Positions 760-13,581 of a stretch of DNA of 64,000 bases are shown here, piece by piece. A model generated the notes under the pieces. It was not told where the DNA came from, did no database searches, and was given only the letters and a program-made list of their open reading frames with translations. The stretch is from assembly GCA_036505865.1 (NCBI GenBank), contig DASXSP010000002.1, positions 6,745-70,744 of the forward strand. Reading direction: 5' to 3'. Position 1 is the first letter of the stretch. Every line of letters starts with the position of its first letter. A program made the translations under genes and the position numbers. This stretch comes from Casimicrobiaceae bacterium. GTDB taxonomy: Bacteria > Pseudomonadota > Gammaproteobacteria > Burkholderiales > Casimicrobiaceae.

Positions 760-1749
760 TCAGGGCATCGCTTGCGGATAGAGACCGCGGACGCGCGCGT
801 GTAGTCGCGCAAGCCCCAGCAACGTATCGAGATGGGGCGTCGCGACGCCGGCCCGCGCGCCGATTTCGCGAGGGGCAGTAAGCAATGCGTCGATCTCGAC
901 GGGCTTGCCCGCCTCGACATCCTGCAGCATCGAGGTCTTGAACGCGCCAAGCTTGCGGGTGACCGTCATCCGATCGGCGCCGCTTTGCGCAATCGGACAA
1001 CCGATCGCGGCGCCGATCGCCGCGGCTTCGGCCATCACATCGAGACAGAATTGGCTGACGAGCGGATCGTCGAGAATACGGTCGGCCGTCGCGCCGGTGA
1101 ACGCAGAAATCGGGTTCATCGTCATGTTGCCCCACAACTTGTACCAGATGTCCTGCTGGATGCGCGGCGACACTTCCACCTCGAACGCTGCCTCGCGCAG
1201 CAGATCGGCAAGCGCAAGCAATCGCGCGGATGACCCACCCTTCGGTTCTCCGACAATCAAACGGTTGCCCACGCCATGGCGCACGACACCGGGCTCGGGC
1301 GTTGAGCAGGTCAAATGAACGACCGTCCCGACGACACGGTCGACGGGAATCGCCGCGGAAATGACGCCGTCCGGATCGATCGTCGCAAGCGGCAATCCTT
1401 CGAACGCGCCGGGAAGACCGTGAAAGAACCACCACGGCACGCCGTTCATCGCGCTGACAATCGTCGTTTCAGAATGTGCCAACGTACGCACAATCGGCGT
1501 CACGCTGATCATTGCCGGGGCTTTGACGGCGATGACAACATAATCTTGCGGCGCTAATTCCGACGCGTCACTCACTGCGCGAACAGGCGCTGTGATCGTC
1601 TGGCCACCGATTTGGAGTCGCCAGCCACGCTCGCGCAACGCCGCAGCCGTCGTGGTTCGCGTAACGGCGGACACATCGACGCCCGCATGCGCGAGTCTCG
1701 CTCCGATCAACCCACCGACTGCGCCGGCACCGACGATGCAGACTTTCAT
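760..1749 (-). CDS. panE: 2-dehydropantoate 2-reductase (ketopantoate reductase, ApbA/PanE family)
   Basis: N-terminal GAGAVGG Rossmann motif, IAVKA, NG, KLWGN, SMLQD..GKPVEID; 329 aa. Confidence 0.88.
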   Translation of the reverse strand: MKVCIVGAGAVGGLIGARLAHAGVDVSAVTRTTTAAALRERGWRLQIGGQTITAPVRAVSDASELAPQDYVVIAVKAPAMISVTPIVRTLAHSETTIVSAMNGVPWWFFHGLPGAFEGLPLATIDPDGVISAAIPVDRVVGTVVHLTCSTPEPGVVRHGVGNRLIVGEPKGGSSARLLALADLLREAAFEVEVSPRIQQDIWYKLWGNMTMNPISAFTGATADRILDDPLVSQFCLDVMAEAAAIGAAIGCPIAQSGADRMTVTRKLGAFKTSMLQDVEAGKPVEIDALLTAPREIGARAGVATPHLDTLLGLARLHARVRGLYPQAMP

Positions 1750-1755
1750 CGCGTG

Positions 1756-1856
1756 AGGGCCCCCACGCTTGCGGCCTCAGTGGCCAATGAGGCCGCTGCG
1801 CTGCCCCCAGAGGAAGACCGCAATGCGCGCTCCTGGGACGGCCCTGCGGCGCTCAT
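1756..1856 (-). repeat. REP/MITE-like element, family 1, copy A
   Basis: cccccacgcttgcggc...gctgcgctgccccc...gggacggccctgcggcgctcat matches copies at 5189-5274, 10600-10632, 13497-13581; internal 9-bp hairpin GCGGCCTCA/TGAGGCCGC. Confidence 0.88.
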
Positions 1857-1864
1857 GAGCTGTG

Positions 1865-3172
1865 TCACGCCTTTGGACGCTTGTCGATGATGCGCTTCGC
1901 TTTGCCAAGCGAGCGCTCGATACCGCCGCTCGCCACGACGTTCACCGCAGCAGTGACGCCGATCAGGCTCTTGATTAAATGCGCGAGCGCCGCGCCGGCG
2001 GCCTCGCCGTCTGCGTGTCCGACGCCGATGCCGCGTTCCACGAGCACCGTCAATTCGTCGAGATTGCGCGGTCGCGTGACCTCGAGCTGATAGTGTGGCG
2101 CAAGCGCAGTCTGCTTGAGAATCAGCTCCTCGATCTGCGTCGGAAACACGTTGACGCCGCGAATGATCAACATATCGTCTGAGCGGCCGGTGATTTTTTC
2201 GATCCGCCGCATCGCGCGCGCGGTCGGCGGCAACAACCGTGTCAAATCGCGCGTCCGATAGCGGATGATCGGCAGCGCTTCCTTCGTGAGCGACGTGATA
2301 ACGAGCTCACCCTTTTCGCCATCAGGCAGCACTGCGCCGGTTTCCGGATCGATGATTTCGGGGTAGAAATGATCTTCCCAGATCGTAAGGCCGTCTTTCG
2401 TCTCGATACATTCCTGCGCGACACCGGGACCCATCACTTCGGAGAGCCCATAGATATCGATGGCATCCATGTCGAGCTTCACTTCGATCGCCTGGCGCAT
2501 CGTCGGCGTCCATGGCTCCGCGCCGAAAATGCCGATCGACAACGATGACTTCCGCGGATCGATGCCTTGCCGTTCCATTTCTTCGGCAATCGCCAGCATG
2601 TACGACGGCGTCACCATGATGATGTCGGGCTTGAAGTCGGCGATGAGCTGCACCTGTTTTTCGGTTTGCCCACCGGACATCGGGATGACGGTGGCGCCCA
2701 GCCGTTCGGCGCCGTAATGTGCGCCGAGTCCGCCGGTGAAGAGTCCGTATCCATAGGCGACATGAACGATGTCGCCCGCGCGACCGCCGGCGGCACGAAT
2801 CGAGCGCGCCATCACCGTCGCCCATGTGTCGATGTCGTTTTTTGTGTAACCGACAACCGTGGGCTTGCCTGTTGTGCCGGATGATGCGTGGATGCGGACG
2901 ACTTGCTCGCGCGGCACGGCGAACATGCCGAACGGATAGTTGTCGCGCAGGTCGGTCTTGACGGTGAACGGAAATCGCGCGATGTCGGAGAGCGCTTTGC
3001 ATCCGTCTGGATCAACGCCCGCGCGATCGAACGCGTTGCGATAGTGCGGCACATTGTCGTAGGCGTGCTTCAGCGACCACTGCAGCCGCGAAAGTTGCAA
3101 CGAGGCAAGCTCGTCGCGGCTTGCCGTCTCGATCGGTTCGAGATCGCCGGGCTGCGGCATCTTGGCCGGCAT
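1865..3172 (-). CDS. paaK: Phenylacetate--CoA ligase
   Basis: IHASSGTTGKPT, YGYGLFTGGLG, DIYGLSEVMGPGVA, IRYRTRDLT motifs; paa context. Confidence 0.96.
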   Translation of the reverse strand: MPAKMPQPGDLEPIETASRDELASLQLSRLQWSLKHAYDNVPHYRNAFDRAGVDPDGCKALSDIARFPFTVKTDLRDNYPFGMFAVPREQVVRIHASSGTTGKPTVVGYTKNDIDTWATVMARSIRAAGGRAGDIVHVAYGYGLFTGGLGAHYGAERLGATVIPMSGGQTEKQVQLIADFKPDIIMVTPSYMLAIAEEMERQGIDPRKSSLSIGIFGAEPWTPTMRQAIEVKLDMDAIDIYGLSEVMGPGVAQECIETKDGLTIWEDHFYPEIIDPETGAVLPDGEKGELVITSLTKEALPIIRYRTRDLTRLLPPTARAMRRIEKITGRSDDMLIIRGVNVFPTQIEELILKQTALAPHYQLEVTRPRNLDELTVLVERGIGVGHADGEAAGAALAHLIKSLIGVTAAVNVVASGGIERSLGKAKRIIDKRPKA

Positions 3173-3185
3173 GTTGCTTATCCTC

Positions 3186-3644
3186 CTAAACGCCCTCGAC
3201 GATATGTCCCTTGATCCGATAGCTCTTGCCGCGGAACAGCGCGATCGTTTCGCCGCGCTGATTCGTCACCTCGATATCGTAGACGCCCGTGCGGCCTGAA
3301 AGACTCCGTTCCTGCGCAACGGCCGTCAATACGTCGTTCTCGCGCGCCGGCGCCAGATATTCGATCGAGCAGCCTTGCGCGACGGTGTTGAAATTGTAGC
3401 TGTTGCAGGCGAAAGCGAACGCACTGTCGGCGAGCGCGAAGATGAAGCCGCCATGACAAATTGCATGGCCGTTGACCATGTCGGACCGGACGGACATCGT
3501 CACCTTCGCGGCACCGGGACGAACCTCCGCGATCGCCATACCGAGCGACTGCGATGCGCGGTCGCTTGCGAACATCCGCTCGGCGACGTGCTCCGAAAGC
3601 GATTGCGCCTCATCCACTGGGCGCGATGGATGATGCTCGCCCAT
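3186..3644 (-). CDS. paaI: Hydroxyphenylacetyl-CoA thioesterase (hotdog fold)
   Basis: NGHAICHGGFIFALADSAFAFACNS motif. Confidence 0.95.
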   Translation of the reverse strand: MGEHHPSRPVDEAQSLSEHVAERMFASDRASQSLGMAIAEVRPGAAKVTMSVRSDMVNGHAICHGGFIFALADSAFAFACNSYNFNTVAQGCSIEYLAPARENDVLTAVAQERSLSGRTGVYDIEVTNQRGETIALFRGKSYRIKGHIVEGV

Positions 3645-3648
3645 TGCA

Positions 3649-5190
3649 TCAGGCTGCCAGCGCGTCGCCGGTCGCGCAGCGACGCGCGATCAGCGGCGAA
3701 ACGCGATAGCGATCTTCGCTGTAGTGCGAGGCAAGATGGACGAGAACCTCACGCACGCGTGCGACGCCGGTTCGATCGGCCCATGCGAGCGGACCGAGCG
3801 GATAGTTGACGCCTTTTTGCATTGCGAGATCGACGTCGTTCGCCGTAGCAATGCCCTGCATCACTGCATCAGCCGCTTCATTCGCGAGCATGGCGACGGT
3901 TCGCATCACCGCGAGGCCGGCGACGTCGTCGAACGCCGATACGGCGATACCCGTCGCTTGCAGTGCGCCTACTGCGGCATTCCATATGGAATCGCTGCAA
4001 CAATCGGCGCGCGCGACGGCGAGCCGACTGCAGCTCGCATAATCAAGGGCAAGGTCGAAAACAACGAGATCGCGTTCGCCGATTGTCATCGCGCGCTGCG
4101 TGGCGGTTCGACCATCGGTCAGCGCCAGCCACCCACCATTGATTGACATGGCGCCATCCGGAAGCGCATCGTTCCTGTCACCGCGTTCGACAACGATATT
4201 CGACGCTGCCCATCGATTTGCAAGCGTAGCGGCGGGTCCGAGCTCGCCACAAATACGAATCGTCTTGGGACGCGGTTGTTGCTGCAGCGTGGAAGGTTCG
4301 GGCTTGGCCGCGTCGGATCCATAGTCGAAGAATCCGCGTCCGCTTTTCCGTCCCAGAAAGCCGGCCGCGACAAGCTCCTGCTGCAATACCGACGGCGTGT
4401 AACGCGCATCGTGGAAATACGCGTCCCACACGCTTCGCGTCACCGCGAAGTTGACATCGAGGCCGATCAAATCCATCAGCTCGAAGGGCCCCATCCGAAA
4501 GCCGCCCGCGTCGCGCATCACGGCGTCGATCGTTGCCGGATCGGCGGCGCGCTCGCTCAAAAGCCGAAGCGCTTCTCCGTAGAAGGGGCGCGCACAACGA
4601 TTGACAATAAAACCCGGTGTCGACAATGCGTGAACCGGCTGCTTGCCCCATGCCGCCGCGGTGGCGTAAACCGCCTCCGCTACCTTACGATCTGTTGCAA
4701 GTCCGCTCACCACTTCAACCAGCGGGAGTATCGGCGCAGGATTGAAAAAATGCATGCCGACGACCCGTTTCGGACGCTGCAAGCCGGCCGACAATGCAGT
4801 AATCGACAGCGATGACGTATTGGAGGCGAGAATCGCCTCTGGCGCCACGGTGCCTTCGAGCTCGCGCAGTAATGCGCGCTTGGCGTCGAGGTCCTCGGCG
4901 ATTGCTTCGATCACGAGCCCCGCGCTGATGCAATCGGCCAGAACGTTGGCGACCGAGAGCCGACCGCTTGCGTCACGCGCCTTATCGGCCGAGATCTTTC
5001 CCTTCTTCGCGAGCGCATCGAGCGTCGCGATGATGTTGCGGCATGCTTGTTCGGCTGCGCCGACGCGCGTGTCAAAAAGGCGCACCGGATGTCCGGCCTG
5101 CGCGGCGACTTGCGCGATGCCCGAGCCCATTGCGCCCGCACCGATCACCGCCACGATCGCGTCCGTCGGCAATGCGTCGCTAGCGCGCAT
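3649..5190 (-). CDS. paaH: 3-hydroxyacyl-CoA (3-hydroxyadipyl-CoA) dehydrogenase
   Basis: GAGAMGSGIA, ASNTSS, GMHFFNPAP, PGFIVNR, GFRMGPF, duplicated C-terminal domain; 513 aa. Confidence 0.94.
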   Translation of the reverse strand: MRASDALPTDAIVAVIGAGAMGSGIAQVAAQAGHPVRLFDTRVGAAEQACRNIIATLDALAKKGKISADKARDASGRLSVANVLADCISAGLVIEAIAEDLDAKRALLRELEGTVAPEAILASNTSSLSITALSAGLQRPKRVVGMHFFNPAPILPLVEVVSGLATDRKVAEAVYATAAAWGKQPVHALSTPGFIVNRCARPFYGEALRLLSERAADPATIDAVMRDAGGFRMGPFELMDLIGLDVNFAVTRSVWDAYFHDARYTPSVLQQELVAAGFLGRKSGRGFFDYGSDAAKPEPSTLQQQPRPKTIRICGELGPAATLANRWAASNIVVERGDRNDALPDGAMSINGGWLALTDGRTATQRAMTIGERDLVVFDLALDYASCSRLAVARADCCSDSIWNAAVGALQATGIAVSAFDDVAGLAVMRTVAMLANEAADAVMQGIATANDVDLAMQKGVNYPLGPLAWADRTGVARVREVLVHLASHYSEDRYRVSPLIARRCATGDALAA

Positions 5191-5274
5191 GAGCGCCGAA
5201 GGGCCGCCCCGAGGCGCGAATTACTCCCCCTATGGGGGCAGCGCAGCGGCGAGAGCCGCAAGCGTGGGGGTCCA
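5189..5274 (+). repeat. REP/MITE-like element, family 1, copy B (inverted relative to the operon)
   Basis: Reverse complement reads tggacccccacgcttgcggctctcgccgctgcgctgcccccatagggggagtaattcgcgcctcggggcggcccttcggcgctcat, closely matching copy D. Confidence 0.9.
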
Positions 5275-5281
5275 AGAGCTG

Positions 5282-6073
5282 CTATTTTCCGGAGAACCGC
5301 GGGGCGCGCTTTTCGAGGAATGCCGCCACGCCCTCACGGTAATCGGCGCTGTAGCCAAGCTCGCGCTGGATGTCGCGTTCGAGGTCGAGCTGCGCCTCCA
5401 GCGTGTTGCCGGCCGACGCGTACAACGCGCGCTTGATCTCGGCGAGGCCACGCGTGGGCGCCTGTGCAAGCTGAGTCAACAGAGCCTCAACGGCGTCGGC
5501 GAATTCGGCGTCATCGACGCATCTCCAAATCAGACCCCACGCCGCCGCTTCTTCGGCGTGCAGCTTGTCGCCCAACAATGCGAGCCCCATCGCGCGCGCC
5601 GTTCCCACAAGGCGCGGCAGAAAATACGTGCCGCCCGAATCCGGAATCAATCCGATCTTGCAGAACGCTTGGACGAAGGCTGCCGATTTGGTCGCGATAA
5701 CGATATCGCAGGCAAGCGCAAGATTCGCTCCGGCGCCCGCGGCGACGCCGTTCATTGCGCACACGACCGGCAACGGCAGCGAGCGCAGCGCCAGAACCAA
5801 CGGCCGATAATTGTTTTCGATCGACGCGCCGAGATCGACCGCGGTTTCACCGGGCGCAACTGCGCGATCGGAAAGATCCTGGCCGGCGCAAAAACCTCTA
5901 CCCGCACCGGTCAGCAGCAGGACCCGCACCGTTTCGTCGTCCTTTACCGCGGCGAGTGCGTGGCGGACTTCTTCGTGCATCGCCGAAGTGAAGCTATTGA
6001 GCCGTTCAGGACGATTCAGCGTGATCCGCGCGATACCGTTCGATGTTTCAAATTTGACGCTTTCGTATCTCAT
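5282..6073 (-). CDS. paaG: 2-(1,2-epoxy-1,2-dihydrophenyl)acetyl-CoA isomerase (crotonase fold)
   Basis: GFCAGQDL, NGVAAGAGANLALACD, IGLIPDSGGT motifs. Confidence 0.95.
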   Translation of the reverse strand: MRYESVKFETSNGIARITLNRPERLNSFTSAMHEEVRHALAAVKDDETVRVLLLTGAGRGFCAGQDLSDRAVAPGETAVDLGASIENNYRPLVLALRSLPLPVVCAMNGVAAGAGANLALACDIVIATKSAAFVQAFCKIGLIPDSGGTYFLPRLVGTARAMGLALLGDKLHAEEAAAWGLIWRCVDDAEFADAVEALLTQLAQAPTRGLAEIKRALYASAGNTLEAQLDLERDIQRELGYSADYREGVAAFLEKRAPRFSGK

Positions 6074-6123
6074 TCCATCGCTCTTCCGCTCGAGCCCCAG
6101 GATCCCTGATTCTTAGTCGTTGT

Positions 6124-7788
6124 CTACACGTGCATCCGATGCTGAACGACACGGAACCGGTTGGCCACGTACGCCGCGTCGGTGAGCGTTGCATTTGCCG
6201 CTGGATTGGCGCCCGTCCCATGGAAATCCGAAAATGCCGCCGATTGATTAACGAACACGCCACCGGTGAGATTGATCGAGAGCGCAACACCGGCATCCTC
6301 AGCAACGTCGATCGCCTGGGCGATGACGTCGTCTCGCGTCGAATATACGGACAGCGTGAGCGCACCGTGACTCGTAATCGCGTCGCGCGCGATTTCGAGA
6401 CTCTGATCAGTCGAATCGGTGGCGATCACGAATGCGATCGGGCCGAACCATTCGTTTAAGTACGTCGCGCGATCGGTACCGCTCAACTTGACAATCAGTG
6501 GCGTTCGTATCGTCGCCTTCGGAAACGTCGGATGCGCAATCGCATGCGTGTCGAGCACCAGCGTACCGAGCGAGCGTGCCGCTTCGAGCCGGCGCAGCAC
6601 GCCGTCATTCTGCACAGCGCCAAGCACCTCGACCGCCCGCGATGGATCGCCGAGCAGCTTGTTGACGTCGTCCGCAAGACCCGCCGCCACTTGATCGAAC
6701 GTCAAGCGCCCGTCCGGCGTTTCGATACCGCCTTTTGGCACATAGATGTTCTGCGGCGCCGTGCACATTTGGCCGGTGTAGAGCGACAGCGAAAACGCGA
6801 TGTTACGGACGAGTCCCTTGAAATCGGCTGAGCTGTCGATCACGATTTGATTGACACCGGCTTTTTCCGTGTAGACCTGCGCCTGACGCGCGTGCTCTTC
6901 GAGCCATCGTCCGTTGGCCGTGCTGCCGGTGTAATCGACGATTTTCACTTCGGGGCGCAACGCGAGCGTTTGCGCGGTGTTGTCGCCAGCTTCGTGCGCG
7001 ACAAGCGCCACGACGTTTGGATCGAAGCCGGATTCGGTCAGCACGTCGCGTACGATCTTGACGGTGATCGCCAAAGGAAGAATCGCACCTGGATGCGGTT
7101 TCACGACAACTGCGTTGCCCGTTGCAAGGCTCGCAAAAAAACCGGGGTAACCATTCCACGTCGGAAACGTGCAACAGCCGATGACGAGCGCGACGCCGCG
7201 CGGCACGATGCGAAACCGCTTCTCCATCTTAAGCGGCTCATTTTTTCCCTGCGGCTTTTCCCATTGCGCGCTTGCCGGTACGCGACGCATCTCATCCCAA
7301 GCATATGCGACGGCCTCGAGACCACGGTCCTGCGCATGCGGGCCGCCCGCCTGGAACGCCATAAGAAACGCCTGACCTGTCGTGTGCATGACGGCGTTGG
7401 CGATCAAAAAGCTTTCTTTGTTGATCCGCGCGAGCGATTCGAGACACACGCCCACCCACGCTTGCGGCTCCGCTCTACGCCAATCTTCGCGGGCTTTGCT
7501 GATTGCGGCAAACAGGGCATCGATGTCGCTCTTCGGGTAGGTGATTCCGAGCGTTAGGCCGTACGGTGACTTCTCCGCGCCGACTTGGCCGGCGCTTGCC
7601 GGTTGCGCCAACGGAAAAGCGCCGTTCAGCAATGCATCGAATGCAGCCTTGCCCGCGTCGGCCGTTCCTTCGCCATAGACCTTGGGGCTTGCCGACTCCG
7701 GATAAGGCGACCAATAGCCCCGGTCCGCGATTGCGGTCAACGCCCGTTCGAGCGTTGCGCGGTGCTTTTCGAACAACGGATGCGACAC
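6124..7788 (-). CDS. paaN: Phenylacetate degradation aldehyde dehydrogenase PaaN (no MaoC domain)
   Basis: RGYWSPYPE, QAGGPHAQDRGLEA, CCTFPTWN, EKAGVN, GQMCTAPQ, FSDFHGTGANPA; 554 aa. Confidence 0.93.
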   Translation of the reverse strand: MSHPLFEKHRATLERALTAIADRGYWSPYPESASPKVYGEGTADAGKAAFDALLNGAFPLAQPASAGQVGAEKSPYGLTLGITYPKSDIDALFAAISKAREDWRRAEPQAWVGVCLESLARINKESFLIANAVMHTTGQAFLMAFQAGGPHAQDRGLEAVAYAWDEMRRVPASAQWEKPQGKNEPLKMEKRFRIVPRGVALVIGCCTFPTWNGYPGFFASLATGNAVVVKPHPGAILPLAITVKIVRDVLTESGFDPNVVALVAHEAGDNTAQTLALRPEVKIVDYTGSTANGRWLEEHARQAQVYTEKAGVNQIVIDSSADFKGLVRNIAFSLSLYTGQMCTAPQNIYVPKGGIETPDGRLTFDQVAAGLADDVNKLLGDPSRAVEVLGAVQNDGVLRRLEAARSLGTLVLDTHAIAHPTFPKATIRTPLIVKLSGTDRATYLNEWFGPIAFVIATDSTDQSLEIARDAITSHGALTLSVYSTRDDVIAQAIDVAEDAGVALSINLTGGVFVNQSAAFSDFHGTGANPAANATLTDAAYVANRFRVVQHRMHV

Positions 7789-7881
7789 GGAAACCTCTCG
7801 CGTTCTTCCATTACGAACTCTAGCACGACGCGATCATCGTAGCGTGATGCAAAAGAATTGCAACGCACGGCAGTTTTACCG

Positions 7882-8964
7882 CTAACCCGTCCCGGTTTGG
7901 TCGTAGTCAACCACCACGCGATCGGTAGTGGGATAACTCTGGCACGACAAGATGAACCCGCGTGCAACCTCGTAATCTTCGAGCGCAAAGTTCACGTCCA
8001 TATCGACTTCGCCCTCCACCAACCGGCAGCGGCACGTCGAGCAGACGCCGCCACGACAGGAGTACGGCAACTCGATGCCATTCTTCAATCCGGCCTCGAT
8101 GATGTTCTCTTTCTCCTTTTCGAGCAAAAACGATTTTCGCGTGCCATCGATGATCACCGTGACTTCACATTCCGACTGCGCCGCCTGCGGCAACGGACGC
8201 GCCACGTGCTGATGCTTGGGGATGCTCGCCGCGAAGCGCTCGATCTTGATCTTCGCTTCCGGAAACCCGCGCGCCTTCAGCGCATCGGTCACCGACTCCA
8301 TCATTCCTTCAGGGCCGCAAACAAACGCTGCGTCGATGTCTTCCAGGCGAATCCAGTGGTCGAGCAACGCTCCGGCCCTGTCGCGGTCGATCCGGCCATG
8401 CAACAGATCGATATCCTGCGCTTCCCGCGACAGCACGTGGACAAGATTGAAGCGAGTCAAATACACGTCTTTCAATGCTGCGAGCTCTTCCCGGAACATC
8501 ACGGTGCTCGACGCACGATTGCCGTAGAACAGCGTGAAACGCGATTGCGGCTCGGCGACGAGAGTGGTCTTGATAATCGACATGAGCGGTGTGATGCCGC
8601 TACCGGCCGCGAACCCCAGATAGTGCCGCTTCGCGTTGGGATCGAGCGCCACGTTGAAATGCCCCATTGGCGGCATGACCTCGATCGTCGCGCCGACCTT
8701 GAGCGCTTCATTCGCCCACGTCGAAAAGGCGCCGCCTGGCGATCGCTTGACGGCAATCCGCAACGTATCGTCATGGACGGCTGAACAAATCGAATACGAG
8801 CGACGCAAATCCTCGCCGCCGATTTGGGCTCGCAATGTGAGATGCTGCCCTTGCGTGAAGGAGAATTGGTCACGCAGCGCTTGCGGCACAGCGAACGTCA
8901 CCGCGACGGCGTCGCGCGTTTCGCGTTCGACGTGAGCGATCGAAAGCCGATGGAACTTACTCAC
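7882..8964 (-). CDS. paaE: Phenylacetyl-CoA epoxidase reductase subunit (FAD/NAD plus 2Fe-2S)
   Basis: RRSYSICS, GSGITP, VCGP, CRGGVCSTC...LSCQ; probable GTG start at 8964 (provided ORF extends into paaD). Confidence 0.95.
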   Translation of the reverse strand: MSKFHRLSIAHVERETRDAVAVTFAVPQALRDQFSFTQGQHLTLRAQIGGEDLRRSYSICSAVHDDTLRIAVKRSPGGAFSTWANEALKVGATIEVMPPMGHFNVALDPNAKRHYLGFAAGSGITPLMSIIKTTLVAEPQSRFTLFYGNRASSTVMFREELAALKDVYLTRFNLVHVLSREAQDIDLLHGRIDRDRAGALLDHWIRLEDIDAAFVCGPEGMMESVTDALKARGFPEAKIKIERFAASIPKHQHVARPLPQAAQSECEVTVIIDGTRKSFLLEKEKENIIEAGLKNGIELPYSCRGGVCSTCRCRLVEGEVDMDVNFALEDYEVARGFILSCQSYPTTDRVVVDYDQTGTG

Positions 8965-8981
8965 GCGTGTCGCCTCTGGCG

Positions 8982-9536
8982 TCAGAGAGCCTTGAAATAG
9001 TCGAACGGCTCGAGGCAATCGTCGCAGCGATAATGCGCCTTGCACGCCGTAGACCCGAACTGCGACACGAGCCGCGTGCGCACCGACGCACAACGCGGGC
9101 ACGCGACCGCAATGATTCGGCGGAGCGGGCTGATTCCGGTCACATCGATTCGCGGTGCCGCGAGGTGCGGCGGCGCTATCCCGAATTCGCGCAGCCGGCG
9201 CTTCGCCTCGGGCGCAATGCGATCGGTGCTCCACGCCGGCGCAAGTCTTGTCTCGATGCGCGCGTCCACGATCCCTCGCCCCACGAGCGCATCGTGGATG
9301 TCAGTCATGATCGTCTCCGTCGCCGGACAGCCTGAATACGTAGGCGTCACATCGATGACAAGGGTTGCGTCTTTCACACGAACGGCCCAAACGATGCCGA
9401 GCTCGACGATCGATACGACGGGAATTTCCGGATCCGGCACGCCGGCCAGCGCTTCCCACGCTCGGCCAATGATCGCGTCGTCAACTCGGGGCGCCGACCG
9501 GCCGCTGCGCTCTTGGTGGACCGCCGCAACTACCAT
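8982..9536 (-). CDS. paaD: Phenylacetyl-CoA epoxidase subunit D (Fe-S maturation)
   Basis: VPDPEIPVVSIVELG, TPTYSGCPA, CPRC...STACKAHYRCDDCLEPFDYFK; ATG at 9536 overlaps the paaC stop. Confidence 0.94.
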   Translation of the reverse strand: MVVAAVHQERSGRSAPRVDDAIIGRAWEALAGVPDPEIPVVSIVELGIVWAVRVKDATLVIDVTPTYSGCPATETIMTDIHDALVGRGIVDARIETRLAPAWSTDRIAPEAKRRLREFGIAPPHLAAPRIDVTGISPLRRIIAVACPRCASVRTRLVSQFGSTACKAHYRCDDCLEPFDYFKAL

Positions 9537-10312
9537 TGCAAGCCCGGATACGCGCGCTGCATGGATTGCATCTCGGCCAACATGTGGCCAAGGTGCTCGG
9601 TATGGACACCTTGTTTGCCGCCGCGCCCGTTGGCGCCTTGCATCCACGCGGCCGTTGGCATCACAAGCGTCGCCTGATCGAATACGCGCGCAATGTTGGA
9701 GAGCCACGGCGCATGCAGTGCGCGAACATCGGCGGCGATGCCCGTCTCGATCAACGTGAGATCGACGCTGTCCGGCTCGAACATTTCGCCGGTGTACATC
9801 CACAAATCGTCGAGCGCCTTCTGCATCTTCCGGTGCGATTCCTCGGTGCCGTCGCCCAATCGAATCACCCAATCCGCCGAACGCTCGATGTGATACGCGA
9901 CCTCCTTGGCACCCTTTGCGGCGATTTCCGCGACGCGCAGGTCGGTTGATGACGAAAGAGCCTGCAGCACCAGGAAATGCCACTGATCGAAGTAAAACTG
10001 GCGCGCTATCGTGTCCGCGTACGTGCCGTTCGGCTGCTCGGTCAACAGCAAATTCCGAAAGGCAGAGCCATCGCGCAGAAACGCGAGCTCATCCTCGCTG
10101 CGGCCGCAACCTCGCCATTTCGTCTCCACTTCGCCGGCATACGCGAACCAAAGCCGAGCTTGCCCGAGTAAATCAAGTCCGACATTGGTAAGCGCGATAT
10201 CTTCCTCGAGTATCGGTGCTTTGCCCGCCCACTCGCCCAAGCGCTGCGCGAGCACGAGATCGCTGTCCGCAAATCGCAGCACGTACTCAAACAGTGTTGA
10301 GGATTCGTTCAT
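9530..10312 (-). CDS. paaC: Phenylacetyl-CoA epoxidase subunit C
   Basis: LAQRLGEW, LEEDIALTN, KEVAYH, GVHTEHLGHMLAEMQ. Confidence 0.95.
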   Translation of the reverse strand: MNESSTLFEYVLRFADSDLVLAQRLGEWAGKAPILEEDIALTNVGLDLLGQARLWFAYAGEVETKWRGCGRSEDELAFLRDGSAFRNLLLTEQPNGTYADTIARQFYFDQWHFLVLQALSSSTDLRVAEIAAKGAKEVAYHIERSADWVIRLGDGTEESHRKMQKALDDLWMYTGEMFEPDSVDLTLIETGIAADVRALHAPWLSNIARVFDQATLVMPTAAWMQGANGRGGKQGVHTEHLGHMLAEMQSMQRAYPGLQW

Positions 10313-10314
10313 CG

Positions 10315-10599
10315 TTACAGATGCTTTACTTCTTCGGGCATCGGAAAAAATGTCGGATGCCGGTAGACCTTGTCGTTCGCGGGCTCGAAAAGCGGTCCAC
10401 GCTCGCTTGGCGCAGACGCATGTATGTCGGCGGAGCGCACGACCCAGATCGACACACCTTCGTTACGTCGCGTATAGACGTCGCGAGCATTCTTGATCGC
10501 CATCTCGGCATCCGCTGCATGAAGACTGCCGACGTGCTTGTGCGCGAGTCCATGCTGGGAGCGGATGAACACTTCCCATAACGGCCATTCAGTAGTCAT
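10315..10599 (-). CDS. paaB: Phenylacetyl-CoA epoxidase subunit B
   Basis: [47 protein letters not shown]. Confidence 0.96.
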
Positions 10600-11603
10600 T
10601 GGACCCCCATGCTTGCGGCATTCGCCGCTACGGCGCAATGCTTTTCAGCATGCGCAACCGCCGCGTCGCGTACCCACGCACCGTCTTCCCAGGCTTTCAC
10701 GCGCGTGCGCATGCGCTCGCGATTGCACGGTCCATTTCCTTTCAGCACGTTGTAGAACTCCTCCCAATCGATCGGGCCGAAATCGTAGTGTCCCTTCGCG
10801 TCGTTCCACTTGAGCTGCGGATCGGGCATCGAGATGCCGAGGTAATCGGCTTGCGGCACCGTTTGATCGACGAACCGCTGCCGCAGCTCATCATTCGACA
10901 ACAACTTGATCTTCCAGCGCGCGGATTGCGCGCTATGCACGCTCTCCGCGTCCGGCGGGCCGAACATCATCAACGACGGCCACCACCATCGATTCAACGC
11001 GTCCTGTGCCATCGCCTTCTGCTCGGTACTTCCGCGGCACAGCGTCAGCATGATGTCGTAGCCCTGGCGCTGGTGAAATGATTCTTCCTTGCAGATCCGA
11101 ATCATCGCGCGCCCATAAGGCCCGTACGAGCATCGGCACAGCGGAATCTGATTCATGATCGCCGCGCCGTCGACGAGCCAGCCGATCGCGCCGATGTCGG
11201 CCCACGTCAACGTCGGATAGTTGAAGATCGACGAATACTTCACTTTGCCCGCGTGCAAGTCGGCGACCAATTGATCGCGCGACACGCCCAATGTTTCGGC
11301 GGCGGAATACAGATATAGCCCATGGCCCGCCTCATCCTGAACCTTCGCCATCAGAATCGCCTTGCGCTTCAACGTTGGCGCACGGGTGATCCAGTTGCCT
11401 TCGGGCAGCATGCCGACGATCTCGGAATGCGCATGCTGCTGAATTTGCCGAATCAGCGTGCGGCGATAAGCGTCGGGCATCGCGTCTTTCGGCTCGATCT
11501 TGATGTCGGCGTCGACGCGCGCCTGGAACGCTTGCTCATCGGGCGACATTTCGGCGGCGTCGCGAACTTTCGTGACGCCGGTTTCGACCATTTGTGCGTA
11601 CAT
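10596..11603 (-). CDS. paaA: Phenylacetyl-CoA epoxidase catalytic di-iron subunit A
   Basis: [30 protein letters not shown]; ATG at 11603. Confidence 0.96.
10600..10632 (-). repeat. Partial family-1 REP-like copy C, forming the last codons of paaA
   Basis: tggacccccatgcttgcggcattcgccgctacg versus copy D tggacccccacgcttgcggc-ttcgccgctgcg. Confidence 0.78.
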
Positions 11604-11659
11604 CGGGATCCTCCGGCCGCGCTCATGGCTTCGAGCACTGGCAATCCAGCGGACTATAC

Positions 11660-11696
11660 GATACACTTTCGCCGTGCGTCAAGACAAAAATGTATC
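11660..11696. promoter_or_regulatory. Candidate PaaX operator GATACA-N25-TGTATC
   Basis: Perfect hexamer inverted repeat between paaA and paaX; resembles the GATACA-N26-TGTATC PaaX site reported for Pseudomonas sp. Y2 (recalled; spacer here is 25). Confidence 0.7.
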
Positions 11697-11739
11697 ACTA
11701 CGCTCGAACCGAGGGTCGAACGGACCGCCTTCCAACAGC

Positions 11740-12672
11740 GTGCCCGATCCCTTCGTGACGCGCTGGGTCCAACGCACGCTCGCGGCGGAACCGCCCCGCG
11801 CACGTTCGCTCATCGTGACCGTATGGGGCGATGCGCTCGCCCCGCATCGTGGCATCGTGTGGCTCGCCGGATTGATTCGATTGATGGCGCCATTCGGGAT
11901 CAATGAGCGTCTCGTCCGGACAAGCGTCTTTCGTCTGGTACGCGACGGTTGGCTGACCGCGCAGTCGCACGGTCGGCGGAGCCGCTATCGGCTGACTCGC
12001 GAGGGCGCGCGCCGTTTCGAGCAGGCGCATCATCGAATCTACGCAATGCCGAATCCCGATTGGGACGGCGAATGGGAAGTCGTGCTCGCGCCGCCTGACG
12101 CTTCGTACGCCGCCGTCCGGCTCAAGCTGCGCGACGAGCTTGCATGGGAGGGCTTCGGCACGCTCGGTCCGGGTACGTACGCAAGGCCGTTGCACGGCGA
12201 TTCGGCACTGCCGCGAATCGTGGCCGCGCTTCGACTCGGGTCGCGCGTAACGATCCTGCGGGCGAAGGACCATCCCTCGCTGACCGGCGCTTCCCTCGCG
12301 GCGCGTGTTGGGACGGCATGGGACCTTGCGGCGCTTACCTCGGACTACCAACGATTTCTTCGCCGCTTTGGCAGCGTCATCGACGCATTTCGCACAGCGG
12401 GCGCGGAGAACGGCGATCCGGCGCAAAGCTTCATCGTGCGCACGCTATTAATTCATGCTTTTCGTCGCGTGCTGTTGCGCGACCCACAACTGCCGCCCGC
12501 GCTCCTCCCACTGGACTGGCCCGGAGCAGCCGCGTTCGCGCTCTGTCGCGATTTCTATCGGCTCACGCACAAACGCGCCGAGATGCACCTTGACGCCACG
12601 CTTTCGCCCGATGGCGATCGACTGCCGGCCGCTAATGCGGAATTCTATCGACGCTTTGGCGGCATCGACTGA
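11740..12672 (+). CDS. paaX: Phenylacetate degradation operon repressor
   Basis: ARSLIVTVWGDA wHTH, ERLVRTSVFRL, RTLLIHAFRRVLLRDPQLP..LLPLDWPG; probable GTG start at 11740. Confidence 0.94.
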   Translation: MPDPFVTRWVQRTLAAEPPRARSLIVTVWGDALAPHRGIVWLAGLIRLMAPFGINERLVRTSVFRLVRDGWLTAQSHGRRSRYRLTREGARRFEQAHHRIYAMPNPDWDGEWEVVLAPPDASYAAVRLKLRDELAWEGFGTLGPGTYARPLHGDSALPRIVAALRLGSRVTILRAKDHPSLTGASLAARVGTAWDLAALTSDYQRFLRRFGSVIDAFRTAGAENGDPAQSFIVRTLLIHAFRRVLLRDPQLPPALLPLDWPGAAAFALCRDFYRLTHKRAEMHLDATLSPDGDRLPAANAEFYRRFGGID

Positions 12673-12678
12673 TCGGCG

Positions 12679-13581
12679 TTAACGCCCCACCATCGCCAAT
12701 ACGTCCGCTTTGAGGAAGCGCTCAACCACGAGCATGAACGCGATCGACGGCACAAGCAGCAAGAGCGCCGTAATCGACGCAATCTGATAGTTGCCGCCCA
12801 TGCTCGCGTTGAACATCAGTAGCGGCAGCGTCGTGACGTCCGGTACGCCGACGAAATACGTGCCGGTGAATTCATCGAGCGATTCGAGAAACACGAAAAT
12901 CGCGCTCGCGATCAGTCCGGGTGCCGCTAACGGCAGCGTAACGGTGCGAAAGCACGTCCACGGCGATGCGCCGATGTTGCGTGCGGCTTCCTCGAGCGAC
13001 ACGTCGACCGAAGCGAACGCCGCCGACGCGATCCACACAGCCAGGACCAGCCCATGGGCCGCATGGACGAGCACGACGCCGAGGATCGTGCCGTTGAGGC
13101 CGATTTCGTAGAACACGCGCGCGATGTTGACGTAAACCGGCAGATTCGGTATCGCCTGAGGCAACAGGAACGCGAGCAAGATCAGCGCACGCCAACGCAA
13201 CTTGAGACGCGCGAGCGCGTAGCCGGCGGGAATCGCAACGATCAGGCTCACGATCACCGTCAACAATGCGATCCAGATGCTCGTACCAAGCGATGCAAGC
13301 GCGTTGCCGCGCGGCGCGAACACCCGTGCCCAGAACGTGAAGCCGAATTCCTGCGGCAATTTGCTGGGGAAGTACCACTTTTCGGCGAATGCCCACAGAA
13401 ACAGATTGGCGAGTGGCCCGAAGATGACGAACGCAAAGAGCGCCAGTAGAAGCGCGATTCCGAACATTCGCGACCAGCGTCCGGCGTCTGTCATTGTGGA
13501 CCCCCACGCTTGCGGCTTCGCCGCTGCGCTGGCCCCAAAGGGGGAGCGATTCGCGCCTTGGGACGGCCCTGCGGCGCTCAT
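12679..13581 (-). CDS. ABC transporter permease (PotC-like); alternative start at 13494 without the 29-aa REP-derived leader
   Basis: EEAARNIGASPWTCFRTVTLPLAAPG (EAA loop); multiple TM segments. Confidence 0.9.
   Translation of the reverse strand: MSAAGPSQGANRSPFGASAAAKPQAWGSTMTDAGRWSRMFGIALLLALFAFVIFGPLANLFLWAFAEKWYFPSKLPQEFGFTFWARVFAPRGNALASLGTSIWIALLTVIVSLIVAIPAGYALARLKLRWRALILLAFLLPQAIPNLPVYVNIARVFYEIGLNGTILGVVLVHAAHGLVLAVWIASAAFASVDVSLEEAARNIGASPWTCFRTVTLPLAAPGLIASAIFVFLESLDEFTGTYFVGVPDVTTLPLLMFNASMGGNYQIASITALLLLVPSIAFMLVVERFLKADVLAMVGR
13497..13581 (-). repeat. REP/MITE-like element, family 1, copy D
   Basis: Same sequence family; its ATG overlaps the upstream stop (ATGA) and it reads in frame into the permease. 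Confidence 0.9.

Follow-up and report, generated by a model that had tools for sequence, protein, structure and literature searches.

A BRE-family repeat at operon junctions of a Casimicrobiaceae bacterium resembles MIRU elements in design

Introduction

Two described families of short dispersed repeats bear most directly on the element reported here. MIRUs (mycobacterial interspersed repetitive units) are inserted at start codons and contain an open reading frame (ORF) coupled to the following gene by a -4 overlap (Supply et al. 1997, summarised in PMC12548453 and PMC3184786), and both empty and filled MIRU sites, with tetranucleotide direct repeats, have been reported (Delihas 2011, PMC3184786). 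The Beta-proteobacterial repeat element (BRE; Hot et al. 2011, PMC3110155) consists of ~90-bp units (75 to 91 bp) of high GC content that occur in tandem and are mostly intergenic, with some copies overlapping the ends of ORFs by a few bases and others lying wholly inside coding sequence; the BRE paper proposes no function, and its full text deals with neither stop codons nor coupling. Here we analyze a hairpin repeat of ~86 nucleotides (nt), four copies of which lie at gene junctions in a 64,000-nt stretch of DNA (the window) from a soil bacterium belonging to a Casimicrobiaceae-like lineage of the Burkholderiales. The window corresponds to C2:6745-70744 of a 4.17-Mb assembly in 148 contigs (61.7% GC, 99% complete). 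The repeat is a very copy-rich new member of the catalogued BRE family and behaves in the manner described for MIRUs.

As with MIRUs, the repeat is a short (40 to 100 bp), GC-rich, dispersed sequence, often in tandem, that occupies operon spacers in the orientation of the flanking genes. It contains a small ORF that overlaps the upstream stop at one end and the downstream start at the other (-4 spacing), it has filled and empty sites with the same tetranucleotide on both sides, and no transposase is known for either family. However, MIRU hosts are Actinobacteria whereas the host here is one of the Betaproteobacteria, and the present repeat has approximately four times more copies than MIRU, for which roughly 40 loci have been reported. 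It further differs in having a sizeable antisense class, a subfamily without the ATG and TGA, and a measurable preference for targets similar to its own 5' end. No sequence relationship between the two is expected, and they are likened by their described design only. The behavior set out in the original prediction, which was based on the letters of the window, is not new: MIRUs have already been so described, and the sequence family is the catalogued BRE.

Size, anatomy, and ancestry of the repeat family

Searching the genome with nhmmer and a profile built from the window copies yielded 173 matches at 160 loci (E values down to 5e-23), far above chance expectation. The standard unit is GC-rich and ~86 nt long (85 to 86 nt). 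Most copies belong to this length class; others are 95 to 98 nt long, due to a longer third hairpin, or ~200 nt long. The 5' terminus is sharp, reading (C)ATGAGCGCC, and the 3' terminus, GCGTGGGGGTCCA, is followed by 0 or 3 linker bases; conservation of the flanks vanishes directly beyond ATGAGCG on the 5' side and TCCA on the 3' side. Terminal inverted repeats, a classical trait of MITEs, were not found, as neither consensus end, ATGAGCGCCGCAGGG or ...AAGCGTGGGGGTCCA, is the reverse complement of the other. A second subfamily (ATTC-type) opens with ATTCGCGCC and has neither the ATG nor the TGA. Eight tandem arrays were detected, in which 2 to 3 units follow each other head to tail, abutting or 3 nt apart (period, 86 or 89 nt), and within these arrays the frame of one unit stops in the ATGA of the next.

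The ~200-nt class is a composite form with 11 copies in the genome (G000), among them C11:3290-3491, C81:9913-10112, and C97:7937-8136, and none in the window. Each begins with the normal 5' end, NTGAGCGCCGCAGGGCC, continues with a conserved nested insert of ~115 nt, and closes with the normal 3' two-thirds of the repeat.

The repeat is clearly homologous to Bordetella BRE, judging from alignment of the consensus with the Bordetella units (List S1 of PMC3110155). Local alignment scores were 41 to 57, compared to maxima of 25 to 33 for shuffled sequences, over ~75 of the 86 nt, and the best alignment scored 57 versus a shuffled maximum of 27. The two families have a common core, ...CCGC(A/G)GGGCCG(T/C)CCCAAGGC...CCCCCT..GGGGGCAGC...hairpin...AGCGTGGGGG(T/C)C, and agree in unit length, GC richness, betaproteobacterial host, and the arrangement of units in tandem, directly adjoining or only a few bases apart. 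Both are mainly intergenic, with some copies at the ends of ORFs and some genic. They differ at the termini, which are T-rich in Bordetella and read ATGAGCG...TCCA here, although the Bordetella text was machine-read from a PDF and is possibly imperfect. Copy number is also different, the genus studied here having 5 to 20 times more copies than any genome listed in PMC3110155.

Placement and orientation in the genome

Genes were called with a home-made codon log-odds caller trained on the same genome, which gave 3,902 genes and 90% coding sequence and reproduced the paa operon. Despite this coding density only 8 of the 160 loci lay well inside called genes, which bears out the predicted dispersed REP/MITE-like repeat concentrated at operon junctions. 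Most loci stood between codirectional genes and in the same direction as these genes (85 sense loci), compared to 32 antisense, 16 divergent, and 13 convergent loci (sense versus antisense, p = 1e-6). Orientation was associated with the type of 5' end: 64 copies of the ATGA type were sense and 12 antisense, whereas 4 copies of the ATTC/NTTC type were sense, 14 antisense, and 8 convergent.

The stop codon of the upstream same-strand gene was exactly the TGA of the element in 39 of 108 copies or, counted by locus, at 36 of the 85 sense loci. Landing in spacers beyond native stop codons would give a count of zero, and thus these numbers contradict simple spacer landing. In the antisense class, the 3' end of the element was located -3 to +8 nt from the stop of the upstream gene in 38 of 54 cases, and in four of these 38 the stop was the TCA of a ...GGGGG(T/A/C)TCA end.

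In-frame copies inside real genes occurred in both orientations (C68:19339-19421, C52:19821-19905, C77:22734-22816, and C141:12530-12624), in keeping with the lack of stops in five of the six frames of the element. Their hosts are a class I/II aminotransferase, an ABC-type ATPase that by eye is MalK/UgpC-like, and two unnamed proteins, one of them on C77. Compared to PDB 3h14, the aminotransferase has ~32 extra residues directly before its SxxNPTG motif. The copies in the aminotransferase, the MalK-like ATPase, and the C77 protein recall the Rickettsia palindromic elements (RPE; Ogata et al. 2000, cited in PMC3184786), which are palindromic repeats that protein-coding genes can tolerate as in-frame inserts. 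Unlike in that family, internal inserts are exceptional here (about 5 of 160 loci), and stop/start junctions are the rule.

A mini-ORF in phase with the downstream gene

In 29 of the 64 sense ATGA copies, the frame that opens with the element's ATG ended in a TGA overlapping an ATG, GTG, or TTG, which was followed by a long ORF in 24 cases and a short one in 5. The mini-ORF is open for ~29 to 35 codons and ends in a TGA over the NTG of the downstream gene; at 13 loci both overlaps were present, forming perfect ATGA...NTGA bridges. A GGGGGT box resembling a Shine-Dalgarno (SD) sequence lies ~7 nt before the downstream NTG, in the 3' end of the element (GUGGGGGU). The duplex predicted between this end and the anti-SD sequence, which was assumed to be canonical as the 16S 3' end is absent from the assembly, had a mean energy of -9.3 kcal/mol, compared to -3.4 kcal/mol over all called starts and -2.2 kcal/mol with random sequence.

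The phase of this arrangement was evaluated in all sense ATGA copies that have an NTGA close to the 3' end, irrespective of frame (n = 38). The distance from ATGA to NTGA was 2 mod 3 in 32 of these copies (p = 1.4e-10), with values of 83, 86, 89, 92, 95, 98, 101, and 107 nt; the six copies that were out of phase had distances of 85, 87, 88, 90, and 97 nt. Phase was retained when the modal distance of 89 nt was left out (15 of 21; p = 6e-4), and linkers of 0, 3, or 6 nt were far more common than those of 1, 2, or 4 nt. The pattern recurred in 40 copies sampled from roughly a dozen further species of this genus: 36 started with NTGA, in 23 the upstream frame ending in that TGA had no stop over 40 codons or more, and 14 of 15 were in phase with a downstream NTGA start.

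The geometry is therefore strongly nonrandom in the way that translational coupling requires, as had been predicted: it holds for the stops at 36 of the 85 sense loci and for the phase of 32 of the 38 copies. Maintenance of phase across length variants and the rarity of ATG-less copies at sense junctions are both arguments that translation matters. From these features we infer that the mini-ORF would be translated. Its peptide, which shows no sign of selection, would have no function of its own.

Insertion at preexisting stop/start overlaps

For the 13 perfect loci and the window junctions, empty sites were predicted by joining the two flanks and were searched against the genus. Many relatives matched straight over the predicted join. 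Relatives had empty NTGA junctions in place of the loci on contigs C147, C144, C5, C61, and C86 and of one window junction (junction D, described below), so that the comparison with relatives lacking the insert, which the original prediction had called for, revealed plain NTGA stop/start overlaps at several loci. The tetranucleotide NTGA was present on both sides of the element, with variable identity beyond it. The empty sites of relatives include GCTATGAGCATC, GTGAGCGA, ATGAGCGAC, and ATGAGCGTA. At C147:10405, the closest relative has ...GCGCTATGAGCATC..., identical to the predicted empty site; at the C61 and C86 loci, ATGAGCGAC and ATGAGCGTA preexist in relatives; and at the C144 and C5 loci relatives have GTGA overlaps. 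At the C1 locus the native TAG was replaced, at the same codon position, by the TGA of the element, and at the C98 locus the upstream protein was five residues shorter than in the closest relative.

Insertion at preexisting NTGA stop/start overlaps means that the element donates the stop and that the start is normally the gene's own. The proposal that the element supplies both stop and start codons at operon junctions was thus upheld for the stops (36 of 85 sense loci) and failed for the starts, as the relatives with empty sites already have the downstream NTG. It was also considered that an ATGAGCG in the 3' flank might be the leftover of a second copy that had donated the start. This was ruled out at C61, C86, and C147, where element-free relatives already have ATGAGC(G); a second-copy leftover (12 to 18 nt) does hold at a few loci.

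The trinucleotide GCG followed NTGA at 44% of occupied junctions compared to 8% of 596 element-free ones (p = 4e-6), which indicates that the preferred target, NTGAGCG, resembles the first seven bases of the element itself. In addition, rare bases in the first nine positions of a copy recurred in the NTGA 9-mer 3' of the same copy (9 shared versus 2.6 ± 1.4 when copies were re-paired; p = 0.00025). This sharing, which was not seen by eye in other species, points to a reaction that would copy or exchange the target and the end of the element. No target site duplication extending 5' of ATGA was seen, save for a single 10-nt repeat in a relative. That case is L089 (G041:C20), the orthologue of C5:31294 in the closest relative, where a perfect 10-nt direct repeat, ACAGAAGTGA, stands on both sides of the copy; the copy at C5:31294 is a different length variant and does not have it.

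A more speculative account of movement, which we put forward tentatively and regard as rather improbable, is that BRE-type repeats are mobile DNA that homes to stop/start overlaps (NTGA, best NTGAGCG) with its 5' bases serving as guide or recombination core. A unit-length circle or a tandem junction would be the mobile form, and an enzyme that is neither Y1 nor IS110, possibly a host function, would move it. The shared rare variants would be the footprint of this reaction, and individual Burkholderiales lineages would have retooled the core with fresh start, stop, and SD ends on either strand.

The four copies in the window

The four copies first noticed in the window (Table 1) were found where the original prediction had placed them, with its peptides and overlaps exact, when the sequence was read at all four. 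By Pfam, the flanking genes encode PanE/ApbA, an AMP-binding PaaK-type ligase, 3-hydroxyacyl-CoA dehydrogenase, enoyl-CoA hydratase, PaaA, PaaB, and two BPD_transp_1 permeases. Among public sequences, the closest PaaA locus belongs to a metagenome-assembled genome (MAG) of the Casimicrobiaceae.

Table 1. Repeat copies in the window and the start and stop codons at their junctions
Feature	Position	Strand	Description
Copy A	1856-1750	minus	Full long-hairpin variant, 107 nt from ATGA to panE ATGA; sense, between paaK-type ligase gene and panE
ATGA overlap, junction A	1746-1749	minus	Mini-ORF TGA (1748-1746) over panE ATG (1749-1747)
Copy B	5189-5274	plus	Full 86-nt copy, antisense to operon; between enoyl-CoA hydratase stop (5284-5282) and paaH start
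Candidate paaH start ATG	5188-5190	minus	From CATG (5188-5191) at 5' edge of copy B
Copy C	10600-10636	minus	5'-truncated, 3' 37 nt; read in usual frame gives last 13 PaaA residues
ATGA overlap, junction C	10596-10599	minus	PaaA stop TGA (10598-10596) over paaB ATG
Copy D	13495-13581	minus	85 nt (13581-13497) plus 2-nt linker 'ca', 87 nt in all; sense, between two ABC permease genes
Upstream permease stop	13578-13580	minus	TGA of the ATGA of copy D
Native downstream permease start ATG	13492-13494	minus	7-8 nt after GGGGGT box; empty-site relatives start here via ATGA/GTGA overlaps

Copy A has a mini-ORF of 36 codons, MSAAGPSQERALRSSSGGSAAASLATEAASVGALTR*, starting from the ATG at 1856. The paaK stop (1867-1865), 8 nt upstream of copy A, is native, and the element is not its source. 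In element-free relatives with adjacent paaK and panE genes, the native panE start reads ATGAAGGTC or GTGAAGATC, and hence the panE start in the window is native as well. One element-free relative (L102, G048:C137) has between paaK and panE a 20-nt stretch, ATGAGCACCGCAAGGGAGCG, that is similar to the 5' end of the repeat and may be a deletion remnant or a footprint.

At copy B, the only ATG before the Rossmann fold of PaaH is that of the CATG at the edge of the element; the 3HCDH_N domain begins at residue 13, and a TTG at 5172 is an alternative start. In the relative G041, which has an orthologous antisense copy at this junction, the start of paaH is not part of the element but a separate ATGAGCGGC that lies another 16 nt away. 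This 16-nt spacer is absent in the window, where the CATG of the element provides the only ATG. The suggestion that paaH starts within the element is therefore plausible from the sequence, with CATG as the only ATG candidate.

The remnant at copy C has replaced the end of PaaA. The protein ends in ...AASMGVQ* in the window (compared to ...AASVGVQ in the repeat consensus), whereas in G021 and G041 it ends ~8 to 10 residues past AEK, so that the native tail has been swapped for 13 residues encoded by the remnant. Without the element, junction C is a plain GCAGCATGAGCACTGAATGG in G021 and a spacer in G041. The 5' half of copy C must have disappeared along with the end of paaA.

The ATG of copy D and the permease ATG at 13494 share one frame, which adds 29 codons. 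Junction D is empty in G018 (ATGA overlap) and G001 (GTGA overlap), and it is filled in G041 and the public MAG L002, where a separate mini-ORF frame ends in a GTGA or ATGA on the permease start. The separate frames and empty sites of these relatives indicate that copy D is out of phase (87 nt versus 86 or 89 nt) and that the ATG at 13494 is ancestral. Donation of protein termini, as originally proposed, thus stands for the PaaA tail and, elsewhere in the genome, for shortened C termini and internal inserts. It does not stand as a rule for the 29-residue permease extension, which is a one-off: copy D is a base short, and in two relatives the copy found at this junction is out of frame with the permease.

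Positions 424-531 of the window contain a different kind of repetition, three tandem 36-nt units (CAACAGAATTTGTCGGGGCAAACGCGTCAGTCATCG) that are 67 to 78% alike and lie in an open frame leaving the left end of the window. They are probably a 12-residue protein repeat.

Distribution and the search for a mobilizing enzyme

BLAST detected the repeat in 20 of 24 genomes of the genus. A covariance model detected it in 13 of the 96 genera sampled from the Burkholderiales, some with dozens of copies, in a patchy distribution across the order. In other families of the order, the hairpin core is on the opposite strand, with ends reading cTAGGATGAAAC...CACTGACATG(A), and again abuts gene starts. Examples of such opposite-strand copies are L168-L187 (G074) and L188-L207 (G098), which represent two other families. 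In G074, the distance from ATGA to the first downstream NTGA with a long ORF behind it was 2 mod 3 in 6 of the 10 copies having one, and it was 83 nt in four.

The original prediction had proposed a search for a RAYT/IS200-type transposase as partner of the repeat, and there is none in this genome. No match to Y1_Tnp (PF01797) was found in the window's own genome, ~170 repeat copies notwithstanding, and the presence of Y1_Tnp in the genus (18 of 41 genomes) did not track that of the repeat: the repeat-rich genomes G013, G001, G009, and G011 have none, and the repeat-free G010 and G020 have two each. The Y1_Tnp domains of the genus are in unusually long open frames of ~240 to 260 amino acids (for example, G012:C58:30418-30756 and G010:C9:14197-14523). 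IS110 was also considered as a partner and rejected; there is one copy in the genome, and 12 of 41 genomes of the genus were positive, without association with the repeat. Nor was there an autonomous long form. Three pairs of ends 1.9 to 3.2 kb apart enclose ordinary genes, by eye a 339-amino-acid ORF, a UvrD-type helicase, and an acyl-CoA dehydrogenase, and no transposase.

Possible explanations for the repeat

We consider it likely that the four stretches in the window represent a hairpin repeat of ~86 nt, mobile now or in the past, that belongs to the BRE family and serves as a MIRU-like cassette through which translation can pass. Upon insertion at an NTGA, the upstream gene would terminate in the TGA of the element, and the ATG of the element would replace the old start. 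The mini-ORF would be translated by ribosomes that finish the upstream gene or that initiate via the old ribosome-binding site of the upstream gene. It would end on the downstream start, where termination and reinitiation, possibly aided by the GGGGGT box, would deliver the ribosomes. Expression of the operon would survive the insertion, and such copies would persist. Copies that are out of phase, truncated, or genic would give rise to protein termini or inserts, as in the PaaA tail, the aminotransferase insert, and perhaps the permease N terminus and the paaH start.

Several observations weigh against the passage of translation through the repeat. Five of its six frames are without stops, which we put down to GC richness, and the variation between copies has no 3-periodicity, so that the frame is marked as coding only by its phase and openness. 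The frame of the element was fused in frame to the downstream gene in 15 of the 64 sense ATGA copies, and it ended within or past the element without an NTGA overlap in another 20. A relay is impossible at the antisense, divergent, and convergent loci. Furthermore, the GGGGGT box might by itself drive independent initiation, and coupling would then be unnecessary. Finally, the gene caller was crude, the anti-SD sequence was an assumed one, and the copies share descent, so that counts are not fully independent.

Some of these points would be expected if the repeat were a selfish, site-specific element that homes to NTGA(GCG), perhaps duplicating it, with the downstream gene translated independently from the GGGGGT box, the mini-ORF accidental, and its translation and phase irrelevant. 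Such homing would suffice to place ATGA at both ends. The target bias and the empty sites point to site-specific insertion, and the recurrence of rare 5'-end variants in the 3' flank of the same copy, the lack of codon periodicity, the strength of the SD-like box ahead of the downstream start, and the existence of antisense and convergent copies all agree with such an element. However, a pure insertion rule does not predict that nonmodal lengths are in phase or that linkers measure 0, 3, or 6 nt. The 2.7 to 1 bias toward the sense orientation and the depletion at sense junctions of the subfamily without ATG and TGA also argue against it, and we regard this explanation as unlikely. The repeat might instead be a structured RNA or DNA signal, such as an mRNA stabilizer, an RNase site, a small RNA, or a protein-binding site, with the hairpins accounting for its conservation and the start/stop geometry only making it tolerable, a possibility that is compatible with a translation cassette but that we judge quite unlikely. 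The consensus folds into three hairpins with compensatory changes in 6 of 19 pairs, and variation is concentrated in the loops and the 3' tip, to the same extent in sense and other copies. A BRE of Bordetella pertussis lies within a region transcribed as the sRNAs BprJ1/J2, and the hairpin core is retained in other families despite different ends and reversed orientation. However, single copies of either strand folded no better than shuffled sequences (z = -0.6 to +0.1), an Rfam scan of 16 kb gave no match at E ≤ 1, hairpins are equally expected for recognition by a mobilizing enzyme, and the sequence names no function.

The hairpins close to both ends of the repeat, its apparently sequence-specific insertion without a clear long target duplication, its head-to-tail arrays, and the Y1_Tnp genes of the genus are features that could suggest a REP/REPIN mobilized by a RAYT, or else an IS200/IS605 derivative with hairpin ends that a Y1 transposase mobilizes. 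It does share with REP/BIME and REPIN sequences the character of a high-copy extragenic hairpin repeat within operons. However, it is far longer (86 nt versus palindromes of ~20 to 40 nt) and has three hairpins, its arrays are head to tail and not the inverted pairs of REPINs, and it has a built-in start/stop geometry that REPs do not have. The absence of Y1_Tnp, and with it of any RAYT, from a 99%-complete genome with ~170 copies, the independence of Y1_Tnp from the repeat across the genus, and the lack of a long copy with a transposase between its ends make this origin very improbable. It would be more surprising still if the repeat encoded a real small-protein family (MSAAGPSQGAN...). Most sense copies do have an open frame with an ATG start, but there is no excess of substitutions at third positions, genic copies are translated in different frames and from either strand, copies of relatives at the same junction differ in frame with respect to the downstream gene, and the ATTC subfamily has no start codon.

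Implications

These results tie BRE, whose function was left open in 2011, to the MIRU design. They have a practical consequence for annotation, because neighboring genes are given wrong starts, false N-terminal extensions (as in the permease), altered tails (as in PaaA), and spurious small ORFs, which can be corrected once the repeat is known. The ~170 copies, together with the filled and empty sites of relatives, offer far more material than the roughly 40 MIRU loci for asking how repeats that home to start codons move and whether a throw-away ORF hands ribosomes on to the next gene. For engineering, the unit is a natural, compact cassette of bicistronic design.

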